64,000 bases of DNA. Origin: an uncultured Thermodesulfobacteriota bacterium (GTDB lineage Bacteria > Desulfobacterota > WTBG01 > CAIYCZ01 > CAIRTM01). Position numbers and translations under genes: made by a program. This document shows positions 6,862-41,828 of the stretch, piece after piece (position 1 is the first letter of the stretch; the number at the start of each line of letters is the position of its first letter). The notes beneath the pieces were generated by a model. The model ran no database searches. It had not been told where the DNA came from and was given only the letters and a program-made list of their open reading frames with translations. The stretch is from NCBI GenBank assembly GCA_964387595.1, contig CAYLYF010000002.1, positions 7,403 to 71,402 on the forward strand, in the 5' to 3' direction.

Positions 6862-8304
6862 CTATTTTTTCCAGAATTCGGGGATGAAAATTATAAGAAT
6901 GGTGAAAATTTCAAGTCTTCCCAGCAGCATCAGCAATATCAGGACCCATTTGCCGAAATCAGGTATAAACTGATAATTTTCATAAGGGCCGACGCCAGAA
7001 AGCCCGGGTCCTATATTTCCAAGAGAAGCCGCTGTTGAAGATACGGCTGTGATAAAATCCAGTCCGCAAAGGGACATGAAAAGTGATCCGAAAATAAACA
7101 GTAGAAGATAACAGACAACAAAGACACAGATACTTCTAATTATGGTTGGAGATACTGATTTATCGGCTATTTTTACGGATGTTACGGCATGGGGATGAAT
7201 CATGGTAATGAATTCACGGTAAACCATCTTAAAAAGAAGCATTATTCTGATGCATTTTATACCGCCTCCGGTGGACCCGGCGCTGCCGCCAATAAACATC
7301 AGGATAAACAATAACATTATGCTGAAGGCCGGCCACTGGTCAAAATTTGTGTTGCTGTAGCCTGTTGTGGTCATAATGGATGTTGCCTGAAAGGCTGAGT
7401 CTAAAAGCGATTTGGCAAAAGTCTGGCCATTGGCATACAGGCAAAGGGTAATTAATATTGTGGTTATAAAAAGAATAGAGAAATAAGTGAGAAATTCTCT
7501 ATCTTTAAAAAAGCTCTTAATTTTACCGTTAAAAAGTCTGTAATGAAGAGAAAAATTAATTCCGGCTGCAAACATGAAGATTATACAGACGATCTCAAGA
7601 CCCGGATTATTAAACGACTCAAGACTTTTGTTCTTTGTTGAGAAACCGCCGGTTGCCATTGTGGTAAATGAATGACAGACTGCGTTAAAAAAATCCATGC
7701 CGAAAAACATTAACAGCATTACCTGACTAATAGAAAGAAAGATGTAAATTTTCCATAAAGACCGGGCTGTTTCGGCAATTCGGGGGGTCAATTTTTCAAG
7801 AACCGGGCCAGGGACCTCGGCTTTATACAGCTGCATGCCCCCGATTCCAAGCAGCGGAAGTATCGCAATTGAAAACAGGATAATACCCATTCCGCCAAGC
7901 CACTGGATCATGCTTCTCCAGAACAGAATGGATTTTGGAAGTATTTCAACATCGGTTAAAACCGTTGCTCCGGTTGTTGTAAAGCCTGATACTGTTTCAA
8001 AATAGGTGTCAGTAAATGACGAAAATGTTGAATCAAAAATAAAAGGAAGTGAACCGAAGAAGGTCGCAAGAATCCACCCGAGGGCAACGATCAAAAATCC
8101 TTCCCGGTGTGATATTTGTTTTTTTAAAGGTTTGAAAAAACCAAGAAGTAATATTCCGGCCAGAATAGTGCTGATAGCAGCCGGAAAAAAAGACGTGTAC
8201 GTGTCTTCATTGTAAACCAATGCAGTAATGCCGGGTATGGTCATTGTGATGCCGAGAAAAAGAAGCAGCATACCCTGGGTTCGTAGTATCAGTGTGAAAG
8301 ACAT
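6862..8304 (-). CDS. trkH: TrkH/KtrB family K+ uptake membrane subunit
   Basis: This polytopic membrane protein has repeated selectivity-filter-like GxTTTG/TTTGYS motifs. Confidence 0.9.
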   Translation of the reverse strand: MSFTLILRTQGMLLLFLGITMTIPGITALVYNEDTYTSFFPAAISTILAGILLLGFFKPLKKQISHREGFLIVALGWILATFFGSLPFIFDSTFSSFTDTYFETVSGFTTTGATVLTDVEILPKSILFWRSMIQWLGGMGIILFSIAILPLLGIGGMQLYKAEVPGPVLEKLTPRIAETARSLWKIYIFLSISQVMLLMFFGMDFFNAVCHSFTTMATGGFSTKNKSLESFNNPGLEIVCIIFMFAAGINFSLHYRLFNGKIKSFFKDREFLTYFSILFITTILITLCLYANGQTFAKSLLDSAFQATSIMTTTGYSNTNFDQWPAFSIMLLFILMFIGGSAGSTGGGIKCIRIMLLFKMVYREFITMIHPHAVTSVKIADKSVSPTIIRSICVFVVCYLLLFIFGSLFMSLCGLDFITAVSSTAASLGNIGPGLSGVGPYENYQFIPDFGKWVLILLMLLGRLEIFTILIIFIPEFWKK

Positions 8305-8358
8305 ATTTATTCTGATTCTGGTTGTGTTGGAATATATTTGTAATAATTTATGTTTAAA

Positions 8359-8632
8359 CCACGGCTTTAGAGCAGTTTCTTTTTCACTATAGCCTTAAGA
8401 CAGCTGAACCAACAGTTTAAACAGCTTGAACGGTTTAATCAAATTAAAAATCTCAAATAAAACTGAAAAGCAGTAATGCCAAACCTTTTACATTATTTAC
8501 CCTTTTTGTTCTTTTTCGTTTTGGCATTCATTGGGCATTTGAACTTTGGTCTTTGGCTTTTAGATTGCACCGTACCTACCGTTATGCCTAAACGTTATGG
8601 CTACAATATTTAAGAAAATGCTCTAGCCGTGG
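8359..8632 (+). mobile_element. MITE-like element family R2, copy 1 (~274 bp) with terminal inverted repeats CCACGGCTTTAGAGCAGTTT ... AAAATGCTCTAGCCGTGG
   Basis: A second, ~80% similar copy lies in inverted orientation at 17065-17326. The ends form ~12-18 bp TIRs. The element is non-coding. Confidence 0.55.
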
Positions 8633-8677
8633 ATAATTACAAAAAATGAAATCTGAAAGGTGTAGAATAGATATGAA

Positions 8678-8708
8678 TCACTCACTTCTAACTTCTCACT
8701 TCTCACTT
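8678..8708. repeat. Tandem heptamer array, (GTGARRA)x4 read on the minus strand (TCACTCACTTCTAACTTCTCACTTCTCACTT on plus)
   Basis: The array is read directly. It sits immediately 3' of the trkA stop codon, and the same motif recurs at 14545, 16168 and 17338. Confidence 0.5.
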
Positions 8709-8713
8709 ATTAA

Positions 8714-10078
8714 TTACCAGTATTCAAGTTTAACGGTTAACGCTTTTTCAACTTTTTTTATCGCACTTGAAAGTGCGAAAATAATGACATGATCACCGGG
8801 CTGTATAACGCTGTCTCCACTGGGTATAATCAGTTTATCTTCTCTTAATATCGAGGCTATAATTGCATCTTTGGGAAATTTCACTTTAGAAAGAGGCTTA
8901 TTTACAATGTCTGAAGTCTCCAGAGCAACGGCCTCAATCGCCTCTGCTTTTTTGTCATGGAATGTTGTGGCTGAAAGTACTTTGCCTTTGCGAATAAAAT
9001 GCAGTATTCGGTTGATCGCACAAAGGTTTGGATTTACAACCAGATCAACACCGAGCTTTGAAACAAACTGTGTATATGAGATATTATAGATGAGAGATAT
9101 GACTTTTTTCGCACCTTTCTGTTTTGCAAGCAAAGATAACAGTATATTGTCTTCCTCATCTTCTGTGACAGCTATAAAAATATCAGTGTTTTCAATCTGC
9201 TCTTCATCAAAAAGTTTTTCCATGTCACCGTCATGATGAAGAACCAGTGTCTTATCAAGCTCCTCAACTATTTTAAGTGATTTTGCTTCATCAGCCTCTA
9301 TCAGTTTTGTTGATATGTTCAGTTTCTCAAATTCTTTTGCCAGAGGAACATCAATATTTCCACCGCCGACAATCATTGCTCTTTTTACCGGGTTGTACTC
9401 TTTTCCAAAAAAAGTAAGCAGGGAATTTATGCTGTCATTGGTTGTGATCGCGTAAATGATGTTGTTAAAATAAATTTTATCGTAACCTCGGGGAATGATT
9501 ACCTCGTTGTCACGGTAAATAGAGGCGACCACTAAATCATTTAAACCGCTTTTTTCTCTTAAGTCTTTTAGTTCAATACCATCATAGAAAATCGGGTTTT
9601 CAACTTTTAATCCGATAATTTTAATTCTGCCGTTATTGAAATCAACGACATCAATTGCACCGGGTACCTGCAGGAGTTTCATGATTGAAGCGACAGCTTC
9701 GTAATCCGGGTTAATTAAATAGTCAACATTCAGGCTGCTGTCATTGAATATCTCCGGATTTTCAATGTACTCAAAATTTCTTACTCTGGCCACTTTTGTA
9801 GATGATTTAGTCTGTGATGATGCAACCGCACAGGAAATCAAGTTGACTTCGTCACTGTCGGTAACAGCAATAAGCATGTCTGATTCTTTTATTCCTGCCT
9901 GCTGAAGTATTTTTAAGGAACTGCCGGTTCCTTCGATTGCCTGAACATCAAGTGCGTCTCTGATCTTGTTTGTTTTATCTATATCTTTATCTATAACGAT
10001 TATGTCTTCTTTTTCTAAAGAAAGACTTTGGGCAAGATGATAACCAATGTCACCGGCTCCGATTACGATTATACTCAT
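8714..10078 (-). CDS. trkA: TrkA K+ transport NAD-binding peripheral subunit (tandem RCK domains)
   Basis: The N-terminus has a GxGxxG Rossmann motif (IVIGAGDIGYHLA). A second RCK repeat is present and the length is 454 aa. Confidence 0.9.
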   Translation of the reverse strand: MSIIVIGAGDIGYHLAQSLSLEKEDIIVIDKDIDKTNKIRDALDVQAIEGTGSSLKILQQAGIKESDMLIAVTDSDEVNLISCAVASSQTKSSTKVARVRNFEYIENPEIFNDSSLNVDYLINPDYEAVASIMKLLQVPGAIDVVDFNNGRIKIIGLKVENPIFYDGIELKDLREKSGLNDLVVASIYRDNEVIIPRGYDKIYFNNIIYAITTNDSINSLLTFFGKEYNPVKRAMIVGGGNIDVPLAKEFEKLNISTKLIEADEAKSLKIVEELDKTLVLHHDGDMEKLFDEEQIENTDIFIAVTEDEEDNILLSLLAKQKGAKKVISLIYNISYTQFVSKLGVDLVVNPNLCAINRILHFIRKGKVLSATTFHDKKAEAIEAVALETSDIVNKPLSKVKFPKDAIIASILREDKLIIPSGDSVIQPGDHVIIFALSSAIKKVEKALTVKLEYW

Positions 10079-10144
10079 GATAGTTATCCTGTTGTTTTTT
10101 TAAATTTCAGATATTTGATTCTTTTACAATATTATTTAAAAATA

Positions 10145-10327
10145 TTAAAGACTATTTTTATCATATTTTTCATTTAGAATATCAAGCTCTTTTTCTATAT
10201 CAAGATCAGAATTGTTTTCAGCTTTCATCATAATCTGCATAATCTCAAGCTGAGGTATATGAGAGGTTGTTTTTATCAGAGCTTCGATTCTTTTAATTAT
10301 TGGACTGTCGAAGGTTTTTGGTCTCAT
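10145..10327 (-). CDS. Hypothetical small protein (60 aa)
   Basis: The ORF comes from the track only and no recognisable domain was found. Its position just upstream of trkA is compatible with a leader or small protein. Confidence 0.25.
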   Translation of the reverse strand: MRPKTFDSPIIKRIEALIKTTSHIPQLEIMQIMMKAENNSDLDIEKELDILNEKYDKNSL

Positions 10328-10678
10328 TGTTAACCTGTGTAATCTATAGTTTATAGTGGAATTAAAAGTGATAATTACAGGAAAGGTTTTTTGTGATCTT
10401 AGTCAAACAGTGTGAGTACATTATTTGCTTCGTTTGATATGTGTTCATTTATTCTTGCAAGCAGTTTGTGTTTACTGTCTTTTATATATCATTAGGGTTA
10501 AGATATCTACTCTTTATCTTTGATCTCTAACCTGTTTATTCAAATTATTGTTAACTTCAAACTTTATAAACAGAGGATTATTTATGGAGGGTCAATCCTT
10601 AAGTATTCACGTTTAAAGTAAGCAAGGTTGTTTGCTTTATGGAAAATATAGAAAAAATTATAAAAATTATTTTTATGT

Positions 10679-11070
10679 TTCGTCAATAAAATCTGTGGGT
10701 AACTTTTTAGTATTAACTAGAGAATACAAAATTAAAACAGTGGGTTGTCAATATAAACACCCCGTTTTTTTTTAGCGTTAACTTTTATTAAAGAACCTTA
10801 TTCAAAAGATGAACGTCAAATATAAAACCTTGAACGTCCAACATTGAACATCGAACTTCCAACGTCGAATGAAAACCTAGCACCTAAAATCAACCAATTT
10901 TGTTTGTTTTGTTGTTTTTTTCCATTCACCATTCGATGTTGAACGTTCGATGTTCGATGTTCATTTGTTTTTACGTCCACTGTTCATCTATTTTCAACCC
11001 GTCCGTTTGTGCCGTTAAAAGGATCTGTAGTGTAAATTGTTTTTTTACCCGCAGATTCTGTTGAAGAACC
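10679..11070 (+). mobile_element. MITE-like element family R1, copy A (~392 bp) with ~20-24 bp TIRs (TTCGTCAATAAAATCTGTGGGTAA ... TTACCCGCAGATTCTGTTGAAGAA)
   Basis: A near-identical copy lies at 16411-16807 in the same orientation. The element contains a long internal imperfect palindrome rich in GAACRT/CGATGTTC hexamers flanking a T-rich loop. It is non-coding. Confidence 0.6.
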
Positions 11071-11177
11071 ATTTTACAAGTATCTAATGTGCTGTGCTTT
11101 GTAGGATGCAGGCACATTATAACCTGTAGAGCCGGTAATTACCGGTCTATCGTCTGCTGCTGCTGAAAAGTATTTTG

Positions 11178-16167: not shown

Positions 16168-16202
16168 GTGAAAGGTGAAAGGTGAGAAGTGAAGAGTGAG
16201 AA
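16168..16202. repeat. Tandem heptamer array (GTGAAAG GTGAAAG GTGAGAA GTGAAGA GTGAGAA) on the plus strand, 12 bp upstream of the oppA-like start
   Basis: Five tandem 7-mers are read directly. This is the longest copy of the motif family. Confidence 0.5.
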
Positions 16203-16410
16203 GACAAATATAATTAAATTTCATTTCGTTATTTCTACAGTTTTTTATTCTTTAAATAGTTTCTTAAACCCATAATCAGTGAGCGGACTTCGTTAATATT
16301 TTTGATGATATTTCCTGTCGTACAAAATTTCAAACGTTCAGATATGATTAGTTGAGTTTCCAGTTCAGAAAGTGACCCTAATGATATGTTTAAAAAGTAT
16401 AGAAATTCGC

Positions 16411-16807
16411 TTCGTCAATAAAATCTGAGGATAACTTTTCAGCACTTATTATAGAATACAAAGTTAAAACAGTTGGTTATCAATATAAACACCCTGTTTT
16501 TTTAGCGTTAACTTTTATTAAAGAACCAAATTCAAAAGATGAACGTCCAACATTGAACATCGAACTTCCAACGTCGAATGAAAACCAACCACCTAAAATC
16601 AACAGATTTTTTTTGTTTGTTTTGTTGTTTTTTTTCATTCATCATTCGATGTTGAACGTTCGATGTTCGATGTTCATTTGTTTTGACGTCCAATGCCCGT
16701 CCTGAGCCTAATCGAAGGGTTCATCTATTTTGCAACCAGTCCGCTTGTGTCTTGCAAAAGATCATTAATAAAGATTACTTTTTTACCCACAGATTTTGTT
16801 GAAGACC
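16411..16807 (+). mobile_element. MITE-like element family R1, copy B (~397 bp), flanked by a 9-bp direct repeat TAGAAATTC
   Basis: The copy is ~85-90% identical to copy A and has TIRs GCTTCGTCAATAAAATCTG ... CAGATTTTGTTGAAGACC. A putative target-site duplication TAGAAATTC lies immediately on both sides. Confidence 0.6.
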
Positions 16808-17064
16808 TAGAAATTCTTTATCCGATCTCCTTCCAGCACCTTCGCTAATATTGCTTGTAATAGATATAGCAGACCTTCATATCTGCGAAGTTAACCCATA
16901 TTCTTCTTCTTTTGGGAATGATGCTGTTAATTTATATAGTTTCTACCAGAGATACAGATTGCTTCCAAACATCCATTTCCTTGTGATTCATACATTTATG
17001 TCTAATAGTCTATACTATTAGAATATCAGAATCTTCACTGATTACCCATCCATTGCAATAATGG

Positions 17065-17326
17065 ATTAGAGCATTTTTATAACGTGTAGCCATATGTTTT
17101 AAGTGACGGCTGGTGAAGTTCAATCTAATGTCAAAAGCCAAAGTTCAAATGACAAATGAATGCCAAAAAAGAAAAAGCACAAAAAGGATAAATGAGTTTG
17201 GCATTGGTGTTTTTCAGTTTCATTTGACATTTTTAATTTGAACTTAAAATTTCATGTTTATCCGTTAAAACCGTTCAAACGGCAGTCCAACTATCCGAGG
17301 CTATAGTAAAACAGAAACTGCCCTAG
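17065..17326 (-). mobile_element. MITE-like element family R2, copy 2 (~262 bp), inverted relative to copy 1
   Basis: The reverse complement aligns along its length with 8359-8632, with TIRs CTAGGGCAGTTT ... AAAATGCTCTAATCC. Confidence 0.55.
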
Positions 17327-17337
17327 CTCCTTATCCG

Positions 17338-17362
17338 TCACTCTTCACTTCTCACTTTTCAC
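17338..17362. repeat. Tandem heptamer array (GTGAAAA GTGAGAA GTGAAGA GTGA on minus strand) immediately 3' of the AMMECR1 stop
   Basis: Read directly. Same family as at 8678, 14545 and 16168. Confidence 0.5.
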
Positions 17363-17367
17363 TACTT

Positions 17368-17934
17368 CTAAAATATCTCCGCAGAAAAAATATAAATTTC
17401 CATATCATCATCCTTCCAGGCATCCGATGGAAGACCGGCCTTATTGCAGGTCTGTGATAAAAAGGTTTCTTTGTCCCAGTTGTACTGCAAAGCTACCTGG
17501 GGCAGCAGGAGTCCGGAATAAGGGCCTTTGATCATCATAAGTCCATGTTTACCAACTTCTATCTCGCTTATTTCCTTTATCTGTTTCATAGGCGTTAAGA
17601 CAGACAGTTCAATATCAAGATCAGATAGTTCATCTTTTTCTAAGGAAGGAAATCTCGGGTCCTGAAAGGCTGCTGCAAGGGCCATTTCATTTATTGTTTC
17701 TGCAAGAGGTTTTACCGCATGGACATAGCCTATGCACCCTCTGAGCTTGCCACCTTTATGTAAAGAAACAAAGGCCCCTCTTTTTTCATTAAGCGTATCA
17801 GTTAAAGCTTTGGGTATGGATGGCGACTCATTACGCAGTTTTTTTTCAATAGCTGTTATTGCGATTTTATGGAGCTCATTTTTTTCATCTTCAGTAAGGG
17901 CTTTATCTATTGATGCTGTGGTTTCTTCATTCAT
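17368..17934 (-). CDS. AMMECR1 domain protein
   Basis: Conserved LRGCIGY, DPRFP and GLLLPQV motifs of the AMMECR1 family are present. The ORF is 188 aa. Confidence 0.85.
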   Translation of the reverse strand: MNEETTASIDKALTEDEKNELHKIAITAIEKKLRNESPSIPKALTDTLNEKRGAFVSLHKGGKLRGCIGYVHAVKPLAETINEMALAAAFQDPRFPSLEKDELSDLDIELSVLTPMKQIKEISEIEVGKHGLMMIKGPYSGLLLPQVALQYNWDKETFLSQTCNKAGLPSDAWKDDDMEIYIFSAEIF

Positions 17935-41753: not shown

Positions 41754-41828
41754 TGGTAGGCGCGGGCGGTATCGAACCGCCGACTTCTACCACGTCAAGG
41801 TAGCGCTCTCCCACTGAGCTACGCGCCT
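41754..41828 (-). tRNA. tRNA-Val (anticodon GAC), CCA encoded
   Basis: The reverse complement folds by hand into a cloverleaf: acceptor AGGCGCG/CGCGCCT, D-arm GCTC-AGTGGGA-GAGC, anticodon arm CTACC-TTGACGT-GGTAG, T-arm GGCGG-TTCGATA-CCGCC, then A-CCA. Confidence 0.85.

Follow-up and report, generated by a model that had tools for sequence, protein, structure and literature searches.

The window, a stretch of 64,000 nucleotides from an uncultured Thermodesulfobacteriota bacterium (contig CAYLYF010000002.1), contains two copies of a short repeat, R2, which is the subject of this report. Copy 1 lies in an operon spacer between trkA (8714-10078, minus strand; Pfam TrkA_N/TrkA_C, homologues named TrkA), the upstream gene, and trkH (6862-8304, minus strand; Pfam TrkH), which is 63 nt downstream of the repeat. 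Copy 2 begins 42 nt past the stop codon of an AMMECR1-family gene (17368-17934, minus strand; Pfam AMMECR1, homologues named AmmeMemoRadiSam system protein A). Copy 1 is antisense to trkA and trkH, and copy 2 is sense relative to the AMMECR1 gene. These neighbours and the opposite orientation of the copies had been described in a first-pass annotation of this DNA and match the Pfam lists for the same contig.

The region 8359-8632 on the plus strand aligns over its full length with the reverse complement of 17065-17326. In a comparison of 8301-8720 with the whole window (blastn, word size 7), only the query itself and 17067-17325 on the opposite strand were found (E = 1.7e-35; 72% identity over 274 columns with gaps). 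The identity of the two copies is 79.5% over the ungapped columns of the trimmed family alignment, close to the ~80% reported in the first-pass annotation. No third copy was detected in the 64 kb by blastn, a repeat finder or the family profile.

With the boundaries given by the family alignment and the junctions, the element proper occupies 8370-8623 in copy 1 (254 bp, plus strand; E = 4.6e-58 against the nhmmer family profile) and 17069-17323 in copy 2 (255 bp, minus strand; E = 3.4e-86), the latter being 95-97% identical to copies in six other contexts. The family is about 254 bp in length, and its ends read TA|GRGCAKTTT...AAAATGCTC|TA. The left terminal inverted repeat (TIR) of copy 1, GAGCAGTTT (8370-8378, plus strand), follows the family consensus GRGCAKTTT, which is conserved at the end of all ten full-length copies; the right TIR, AAAATGCTC (8615-8623, plus strand), is invariant in the same ten. 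The flanking TA dinucleotides are at 8368-8369 (left) and 8624-8625 (right) for copy 1, and at 17324-17325 (the end nearest AMMECR1) and 17067-17068 (the distal end) for copy 2. The strings quoted in the first-pass annotation, namely CCACGGCTTTAGAGCAGTTT (8359-8378), AAAATGCTCTAGCCGTGG (8615-8632) and the internal block TTTGGCATTCATTGGGCATTTGAACTTTGG, are all present. Its element length of ~270 bp, however, is to be replaced by about 254 bp plus TA on the family-wide boundaries, and of its '18-bp TIR' in copy 1 only 9-11 bp are real TIR, the remainder consisting of the TA and a 7-bp arm of a host hairpin (CCACGGC at 8359-8365 and GCCGTGG at 8626-8632) outside the element.

The interior of R2 is a nested palindrome, whose central ~120 nt form a foldback of degenerate YCAAAKN heptamers. 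In copy 1 this imperfect foldback spans 8439-8556 (plus strand; inverted-repeat arms I1/I2), with a 5' arm of CAAA(G/T)-type 7-nt units, a 3' arm of their complement and a T-rich loop, and is homologous to the heptamer-array hairpins of loci L001-L007 and ~40 metagenome loci (see below). In copy 2 it spans 17127-17241 (minus strand), as located from the inverted repeats and the profile match. R2 is non-coding, as previously stated: neither spacer has a called gene, and the insertions and deletions between copies are not multiples of three.

A 21-base word of the conserved block in the interior of R2 was sought in public genomes and metagenomes, and 61 loci, designated by L numbers, were obtained. 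Among them, full-length R2 occurs in eight further distinct contexts: L065, L046 (equal to L017), L029 (two copies), L028 (equal to L060 and L066), L035, L026, and L051 (equal to L045); a partial copy is found in L041. Copies outside the window, whose absence the first-pass annotation had regarded as fatal to its reading, are therefore represented by at least eight full-length ones in unrelated contexts. The distinct insertion contexts number at least ten, and their flanks have no DNA similarity to each other or to the window. In the multiple alignment the similarity between copies begins and ends abruptly, at TA GRGCAKTTTCT... and at ...AAAATGCTC TA. Every one of the eleven copies is intergenic.

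A young subfamily (subfamily A) of seven copies, window copy 2 among them, has 94.7-97.3% mutual identity. The identity to other copies is 86-90% for L051, 77-80% for window copy 1, and 69-76% for the second copy of L029 (L029b). From this range of identities, R2 has both old members and a young burst. Typical copies are 248-267 bp in length, and two with internal insertions are 319 and 386 bp. An insertion of ~130 nt, GC-rich, is seen in the right arm of R2 in L051 (about 2250-2380; also in L045). L029b (L029 3084-3402) and L041 (2340-2560) share an apical GC-rich hairpin, CCGCCTGTCRC...GCGACRGCGG, inside R2. The L041 copy is without the left end; its contig has 54% GC and shares a sample with the relative with 87% TrkA identity.

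The tetranucleotide signatures of the R2-bearing contigs correlate with that of the window with r = 0.88-0.955; for reference, the two halves of the window give 0.969, L081 gives 0.924, and unrelated loci give 0.62-0.66. One R2-bearing contig (L046/L017) also carries a copy of R1, the second repeat family of the window. On these compositional grounds, which are not a count in a closed genome, the R2-bearing contigs are most likely from the same lineage as the window or from a sister lineage.

The orthologous spacers of relatives lack R2. In the window, 410 bp separate trkA from trkH, against 232 bp in L083 (95% TrkA identity), 84 bp in L010/L011 (89%), and 62 bp in L014 (65%), and copy 1 is absent from all of these relatives. 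The empty site in L083 reads ...TTTACACGGC TA AAAGCCGTGGCC..., with a single TA, and the minus strand of the window reads ...TCCACGGC TA (GAGCATTTT...AAACTGCTC) TA AAGCCGTGGTT..., with the element in parentheses. On the plus strand, L083 has ...CACGGC TA AAAGCCGTG..., and the window has ...CCACGGC TA(element)TA AAGCCGTGG.... At the same place in the trkA-trkH spacer, L083 contains an intact small hairpin, CACGGC-TAAAA-GCCGTG, with one TA in the loop, where the window has the element between two TAs. Because L083 has this hairpin without the element, the outer 7 bp of the reported '18-bp TIR' are the arms of a host hairpin, and L083 proves that the hairpin existed before the insertion. The match of L010 to the empty site is only approximate. 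The comparison of the trkH-trkA intergenic region in relatives, which the first-pass annotation had suggested, thus yielded an empty site with a single TA in L083.

For copy 2, the corresponding comparison was made with L081, which lies on one NCBI contig with L083 and whose AMMECR1 is 80% identical to that of the window. Copy 2 is absent from the orthologous spacers of L081 and of L080, a more distant relative whose spacer is only 72 bp. The L081 empty site reads ...GGACGGAAGC TA AATAATTATAGGCAATGG... (GGAAGC precedes TA), and the window reads ...GGATAAGGAGC TA (GGGCAGTTT...AAAATGCTC) TA ATCCATTATTGCAATGG.... When R2 is excised from the window and one TA is kept, the remainder is colinear with L081 across the junction. 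The occurrence of one TA in close relatives against TA-element-TA in the window shows that R2 is a discrete insertion.

In all ten full-length copies, the left TA is preceded by a host pyrimidine and the right TA is followed by a host purine; therefore, the target may be written as Y-TA-R, which is self-complementary. Both empty sites of the window read C-TA-A. A duplication of 3 or 4 bp (YTA or YTAR, as in IS5-like elements) was considered and rejected, since in three copies the left side reads TTA and the right side CTA, and the G that follows the left TA is part of the element. In copy 1, L046 and L035, base pairing between the two host flanks gives stems of 7, 7 and 5 bp that are unrelated in sequence and have the TA in the loop. 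In three copies the TA and the G of an R2 end constitute the stop codon TAG of the adjacent gene (L028 3152-3154; L029b, L029 3084-3086; L026 2968-2970). A stop codon is rebuilt as TAG when insertion into its TA joins it to the element's own G.

Taken together, R2 is very probably a family of TA-duplicating, non-autonomous MITEs (miniature transposable elements with inverted repeats), as the first-pass annotation had proposed; the proposal is supported by the occurrence in at least ten contexts, the young subfamily, the two single-TA empty sites, and the lack of an Rfam match and of covariation (see below). The features by which MITEs are recognised (PMC3184786) are found in R2: a length under about 400 bp, the absence of genes, conserved TIRs, a TA duplication relative to the empty site, and dispersed contexts. 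A transposase encoded elsewhere would bind the terminal repeats and would cut and paste R2 in trans, with duplication of the TA. It is characteristic of the IS630/Tc1-mariner group that TA is duplicated at a palindromic NTAN or CTAG-like site. Provided that R2 is a MITE, its transposase is probably, but by no means surely, of this type, on the sole ground that TA is duplicated at YTAR sites.

Several points weigh against this interpretation. The TIR is short (9-11 bp) and imperfect. A TA duplication is indistinguishable from an element that carries one TA and inserts beside another. The other copies are on metagenome contigs with 40-44% GC versus 38% in the window, and their being multiple in this genome rests on the k-mer signature and the shared R1 copy. 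No parent insertion sequence (IS) with matching TIRs, for which the first-pass annotation had proposed a search, was recovered. No transposase gene of any kind, and hence none with matching ends, is called in the Pfam lists for the 64-kb window; no transposase-like open reading frame (ORF) was recognised by eye in the 2.5 kb between the two L029 copies, which encode a metallophosphoesterase-like protein and contain two more ORFs, one large and without an assigned function, the other small; and no solo or long-range pairs of TIRs were found in about 0.7 Mb of fetched DNA. In viral contigs, a degenerate TIR pattern gave 9 matches, which is about the chance level, none fitting the R2 profile, and the core and foldback patterns gave no matches. 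R2 was not recognised as a plasmid or phage sequence, copy 2 having no match in either collection (blastn), and a literature search by R2 sequence strings returned no relevant paper. As to an effect on trkH, which is considered below, promoter and terminator scans around both copies did not differ from shuffled controls.

Some of the same facts invite the idea that R2 is mobile but is moved by another hairpin-recognising enzyme, such as a RAYT (REP-associated tyrosine transposase; REP, repetitive extragenic palindrome) as in REPINs, an IS110/IS1111-type recombinase, or a transposase of an IS5 subgroup with 2-3-bp duplications. R2 is a nested palindrome throughout, host hairpin loops hold three or four of the ten copies, the window and the DNA between the L029 copies showed no IS630-type gene, and some IS5 subgroups also give short duplications that contain TA. 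The clean 2-bp TA duplication at Y-TA-R in ten of ten copies, however, is the signature of IS630/Tc1-mariner elements. REPINs have neither a target duplication nor ends made of TIR and TA, whereas R2 has defined ends and a TA duplication, for which reason, together with the absence of a called Y1-transposase gene in the window, membership of R2 in the REP/REPIN class was rejected. The three copies whose left and right junctions read TTA and CTA, respectively, contradict an IS5-like 3-bp YTA duplication, and neither a RAYT-type (Y1-transposase) nor an IS110-type gene is called in the 64 kb. Movement by such an enzyme is accordingly regarded as unlikely.

It is very improbable that the two copies are duplicated genes or cis-elements of a structured regulatory RNA, an alternative that the first-pass annotation had named. 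The central block of R2 is strongly conserved, MITE-like hairpins can be processed in transcripts (PMC10969869), and copy 1 folds better than shuffled sequences (z = -3.5 on the plus strand and -3.8 on the minus strand), but this excess comes largely from the host hairpin plus the TIR, and copy 2 does not fold better than shuffled sequences (z = -1.5 and -0.6). No Rfam family was matched, either at the gathering score over the whole window, apart from tRNA-Val, or at E up to 10 in the region of copy 1; five canonical core-hairpin loci, searched with E up to 1, gave only sub-threshold noise resembling miRNA hairpins. Covariation is almost absent in RNAalifold analysis of ten copies: most of the 51 predicted pairs never vary, and the terminal stems are invariant. 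The opposite orientations of the window copies relative to the flanking genes, the presence or absence of insertions with TA duplication, and promoter and terminator signals not above chance likewise speak against an RNA gene. Finally, R2 might be immobile, a local palindrome produced by replication slippage and template switching, the likeness of the copies being due to gene conversion. Inverted arrays of 6-9-nt units that change fast and vary in sequence are indeed present in spacers of the clade, for example in L012 versus L013 (which differ by one 18-nt unit), in the alternative foldbacks between gcvPB and lipB, and in the arrays flanking the four-helix-bundle gene described below. This origin is nevertheless hardly credible, since the same 254-bp sequence, with its ends and TA, in at least ten unrelated contexts at 95-97% identity cannot be produced locally and the precise empty sites would be unexplained. 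Local slippage remains a live idea for the heptamer core only.

As a TA-targeting MITE, R2 may be compared with known systems. Like Correia (NEMIS) elements of Neisseria and ERIC-type MITEs, it is a small intergenic element without genes that has TIRs and a TA at either end; those elements form a long hairpin and are often co-transcribed with their neighbours, sometimes within operons, as is the location of copy 1. R2 differs from Correia in having no sequence similarity to it, in its length (~254 bp versus about 100-160 bp) and in its central heptamer-array foldback. The Correia TIR is 26 bp, and that of R2 is shorter (9-11 bp). Unlike the Correia case, no integration host factor (IHF) site or promoter was demonstrated for R2 in scans around both copies. 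With IS630/Tc1-mariner elements and their MITEs (bacterial RUP and eukaryotic Stowaway), R2 shares the TA duplication and a palindromic NTAN or CTAG-like target, but a cognate transposase was not found for R2 in the window or the fetched DNA. IS1397 is an IS that inserts into REP palindromes. Like IS1397/ISKpn1 and IS621-type elements, R2 inserts into extragenic palindromes of the host, at their loop or centre (copy 1, L046 and L035); those elements, however, are autonomous and have sequence-specific REP targets, whereas the host hairpins of R2 share only the TA in the loop and have unrelated stems. The insertion of IS621 into REP is cited in PMC3184786, and the features of Correia and ERIC-type MITEs, with the cleavage of Correia RNA by RNase III, are given in PMC3184786 and PMC10969869. 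Chunjie, a MITE from Geobacter uraniireducens, is mostly intergenic, with size variants, truncated copies and one operon copy (PMC10969869); it resembles R2 in being a MITE in Desulfobacterota sensu lato but is a different family, the target and ends of R2 being its own.

With respect to the host operon, if copy 1 is transcribed through from trkA to trkH, it would form a long RNA hairpin, possibly processed or attenuating trkH. Correia RNA is a substrate of RNase III, and Chunjie sits in an operon without breaking it (PMC10969869). By analogy, copy 1, which adds a palindrome to this presumably co-transcribed spacer, very short in relatives, may be processed or neutral.

The heptamer core has a distribution of its own. 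In reference genomes the 21-base word occurs on seven contigs from metagenome-assembled genomes (MAGs) labelled delta-proteobacterium, Thermodesulfobacteriota, Syntrophaceae, Komeilibacteria (two contigs) and Saccharibacteria, against about 0.3 hits expected by chance, as estimated from the collection size. In metagenomes it occurs at about 40 further loci without R2 ends. These core loci share a 100-170-nt foldback, in which the 5' arm is a YCAAAKN array (AAATGTCAAATGTCAAAGCTCAAAGTTCAAAT...) and the 3' arm is its complement (...TTTGGCATTCATTTGRCATTTGAACTTTGRCATTTGG), in short spacers between ordinary genes, and several contigs (L034, L043, L048, L050, L055) have two or three core copies each. 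The R2 profile matches the core loci over the central ~130 positions (E = 1e-14 to 1e-9).

The core block TTTGGCATTCATTTGRCATTTGAACTTTGRCATTTGG and its inverted partner are present in at least three unrelated groups of genome signatures: the window lineage, Syntrophia/Desulfobacterota contigs (about 48-50% GC), and Komeilibacteria/Saccharibacteria MAGs. The same ~35-nt block recurs in these distant lineages with nearly identical sequence. The tetranucleotide r of the contigs labelled as candidate phyla radiation (CPR) against the Desulfobacterota/Syntrophia group is 0.42-0.62, values within that group are 0.77-0.94, and all give 0.62-0.66 against the window. Because the signatures separate the three groups, the spread across lineages does not look like binning error, with the MAG labels as a remaining caveat.

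At orthologous spacers, conservation of the core foldback equals or exceeds that of the coding DNA on either side. The identity is 88% in the gcvPB-lipB spacer, with 79-82% in flanking coding DNA, and 98% in the spacer of the L005 group, with 86-90%; in the secA-argJ spacer and in the spacer after an ABC-ATPase gene, the identity of the foldback is similar to that of its flanks. These values are inflated by ascertainment through an exact word, and without the 24-nt word the gcvPB-lipB value is still about 85%. RNAalifold analysis of 23 core hairpins revealed no covariation, only an invariant 13-bp stem being predicted, and the sense RNA is no more stable than the antisense RNA.

In more distant orthologous spacers, other arrays or foldbacks are found. 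The gcvPB-lipB spacer has the core foldback in the L004 group; in L087/L088 (2452-2510) it is 49 bp, with a direct array of three TAATGAC units running into the lipB start codon, and in L084 (2334-2500) it has an unrelated 167-bp foldback. In the relative with 87% TrkA identity, the trkA-trkH spacer (L012 11366-11652; L013 11366-11634) has a different foldback, built of TTTAAAGTGCCTAAAGTA units with their complement, and also a lone CAAAKN array. The L012 and L013 assemblies differ by exactly one 18-nt unit, and therefore the arrays change by slippage. The core foldbacks of the CPR-labelled contigs (L002 3900-4153, L003 1078-1279, L025 1313-1513) are nested, with arrays of CAAGATA units outside and a GC-richer palindrome, GTCATTCTGAGGCGAAGCCGAAGAATCTC...GATCCTTC...CAGGATGAC, in the loop. 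Another nested palindrome, GATGCCGAAAC...GTTCGGCATGACAAGRATGTCATTC, is found in L018 (3275-3445) and L037 (7043-7193).

Arrays of this kind have been described before. In Geobacter metallireducens, paired sites of three to five tandem 7-9-nt units on opposite strands of intergenic DNA ('global regulator binding sites', classes 1-3; Aklujkar et al. 2009) occur in multiple copies with variable spacing, sometimes have IS elements at a fixed distance, and were proposed to bind proteins of the IHF/HU type (PMC2700814). Their architecture resembles that of the R2 core, the R1 core and the arrays at the four-helix-bundle gene. The R2 core, and only the core, has the defining feature of such paired tandem-repeat sites, with YCAAAKN arms plus their complement in multiple copies per contig. 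The resemblance is architectural: the Geobacter units are GTTGCTYN, TCTCCGTS and MTYCTGA versus YCAAAKN, and the Geobacter sites are reported as genome-specific, whereas the YCAAAKN foldback is common to distant lineages. Direct heptamer repeats are also known: TAACTGA in Beggiatoaceae, Cyanobacteria and Bacteroidetes has a patchy distribution across phyla, often right before start codons (PMC4679880). Like the R2 core, the TAACTGA repeats and the cyanobacterial short tandemly repeated repetitive (STRR) sequences are tandem 7-nt units in intergenic DNA, and heptamer arrays before starts are also seen here (CTTCTCAC before the gene of a substrate-binding protein (SBP), and the TAATGAC array before lipB in L087). 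In contrast, the TAACTGA and STRR repeats are direct arrays, essentially never inverted pairs, while the R2 core is an inverted pair that forms a foldback.

It may be proposed, tentatively and with doubt prevailing, that the core is more than filler and belongs to a family of foldbacks conserved in sequence, which would fit either a signal at the DNA level (an array binding nucleoid or transposition proteins) or a new, very small foldback mobile element spreading between phyla; R1 and R2 would then have grown around it, and the arrays at the four-helix-bundle gene would be the same phenomenon.

R1, the other repeat of the window, is a true MITE of about 395-400 bp with imperfect TIRs of ~26 bp, GGTCTTCAACAAAATCTGTGGGTAA and the reverse complement of GCTTCGTCAATAAAATCTGAGGATAA. 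GAACATC-type heptamers make up the foldback at its centre, which has a T-rich loop, and the L046/L017 copy has an internal replacement. Copy 1 of R1 is at 10677-11070 and copy 2 at 16409-16807, the latter with a 9-bp duplication, GAATTTCTA, at 16400-16408 and 16808-16816, which is single in the intact gene of L081. That gene encodes a four-helix bundle (Pfam 23S_rRNA_IVP; '23S rRNA IVS protein'), and in the window (16235-16991, minus strand) R1 copy 2 divides it in two. L081 has it whole (116 aa) at this position, in L082/L012 it is located elsewhere, between the SBP gene and the permease gene, and L080 lacks it; because of this variation, it looks like a movable cassette. The 'IS/MITE-rich genome' of the first-pass annotation holds in that R1 and R2 are both true MITEs, but the four copies are all within 8-17 kb, and, as noted above, no transposase gene is called.

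Arrays of GTGARAA units (sense strand) follow the stop codons of trkA (8677-8708) and AMMECR1 (17333-17366), and a complement array, CTTCTCAC, is at 16168-16203, about 15 nt before the start codon of the SBP_bac_5 gene. These arrays and the complement bracket the four-helix-bundle gene together with R1 and R2 in the window, and bracket the four-helix-bundle gene likewise in L081. Since they are conserved in L081/L083, the GTGARAA arrays predate the R2 insertions. In L082, inverted arrays of another unit, GCATAGMG/CKCTATGC, stand on both sides of the four-helix-bundle gene. Such bracketing recalls the stem that flanks rRNA intervening sequences. At 10079-11177, the window is without four genes (PilZ, MshEN/T2SSE ATPase, ParA-like and HDOD) that L010-L013 and L083 have between plsX and a 60-aa ORF upstream of trkA. 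R1 copy 1 is at this junction, without a matching 9-bp duplication, and the gene loss could be a MITE-mediated deletion.

The window as a whole is a housekeeping stretch with 38% GC, containing genes for aminoacyl-tRNA synthetases, trp genes, a ligase gene, lptD and similar genes (Pfam lists for the contig). The tRNA-Val (GAC) gene at 41754-41828 (minus strand) is the sole Rfam or ARAGORN match. The closest named relatives of the TrkA and AMMECR1 proteins of the window are labelled Thermodesulfobacteriota, Deltaproteobacteria or Syntrophales and are 60-64% identical. The same contig is present in independent JGI and ENA assemblies (L008, L009, L069, L070), and therefore the R1 and R2 repeats are not assembly artefacts.

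R2 adds a well-delimited TA-targeting family, in a Thermodesulfobacteriota-like lineage that is uncultured and low in GC, to an ordinary kind of mobile DNA. Its landing in hairpin loops and its rebuilding of stop codons make its insertions nearly harmless. R2 is usable as a strain marker for the metagenomes that hold it, and the trkA-trkH copy is a natural test of a 254-bp palindrome inside an operon. The core foldback is a more interesting lead than R2: the inverted 7-9-nt arrays reported from Geobacter in 2009 have remained without explanation, and the core family provides a tractable and widely distributed example for asking what binds or moves such arrays.

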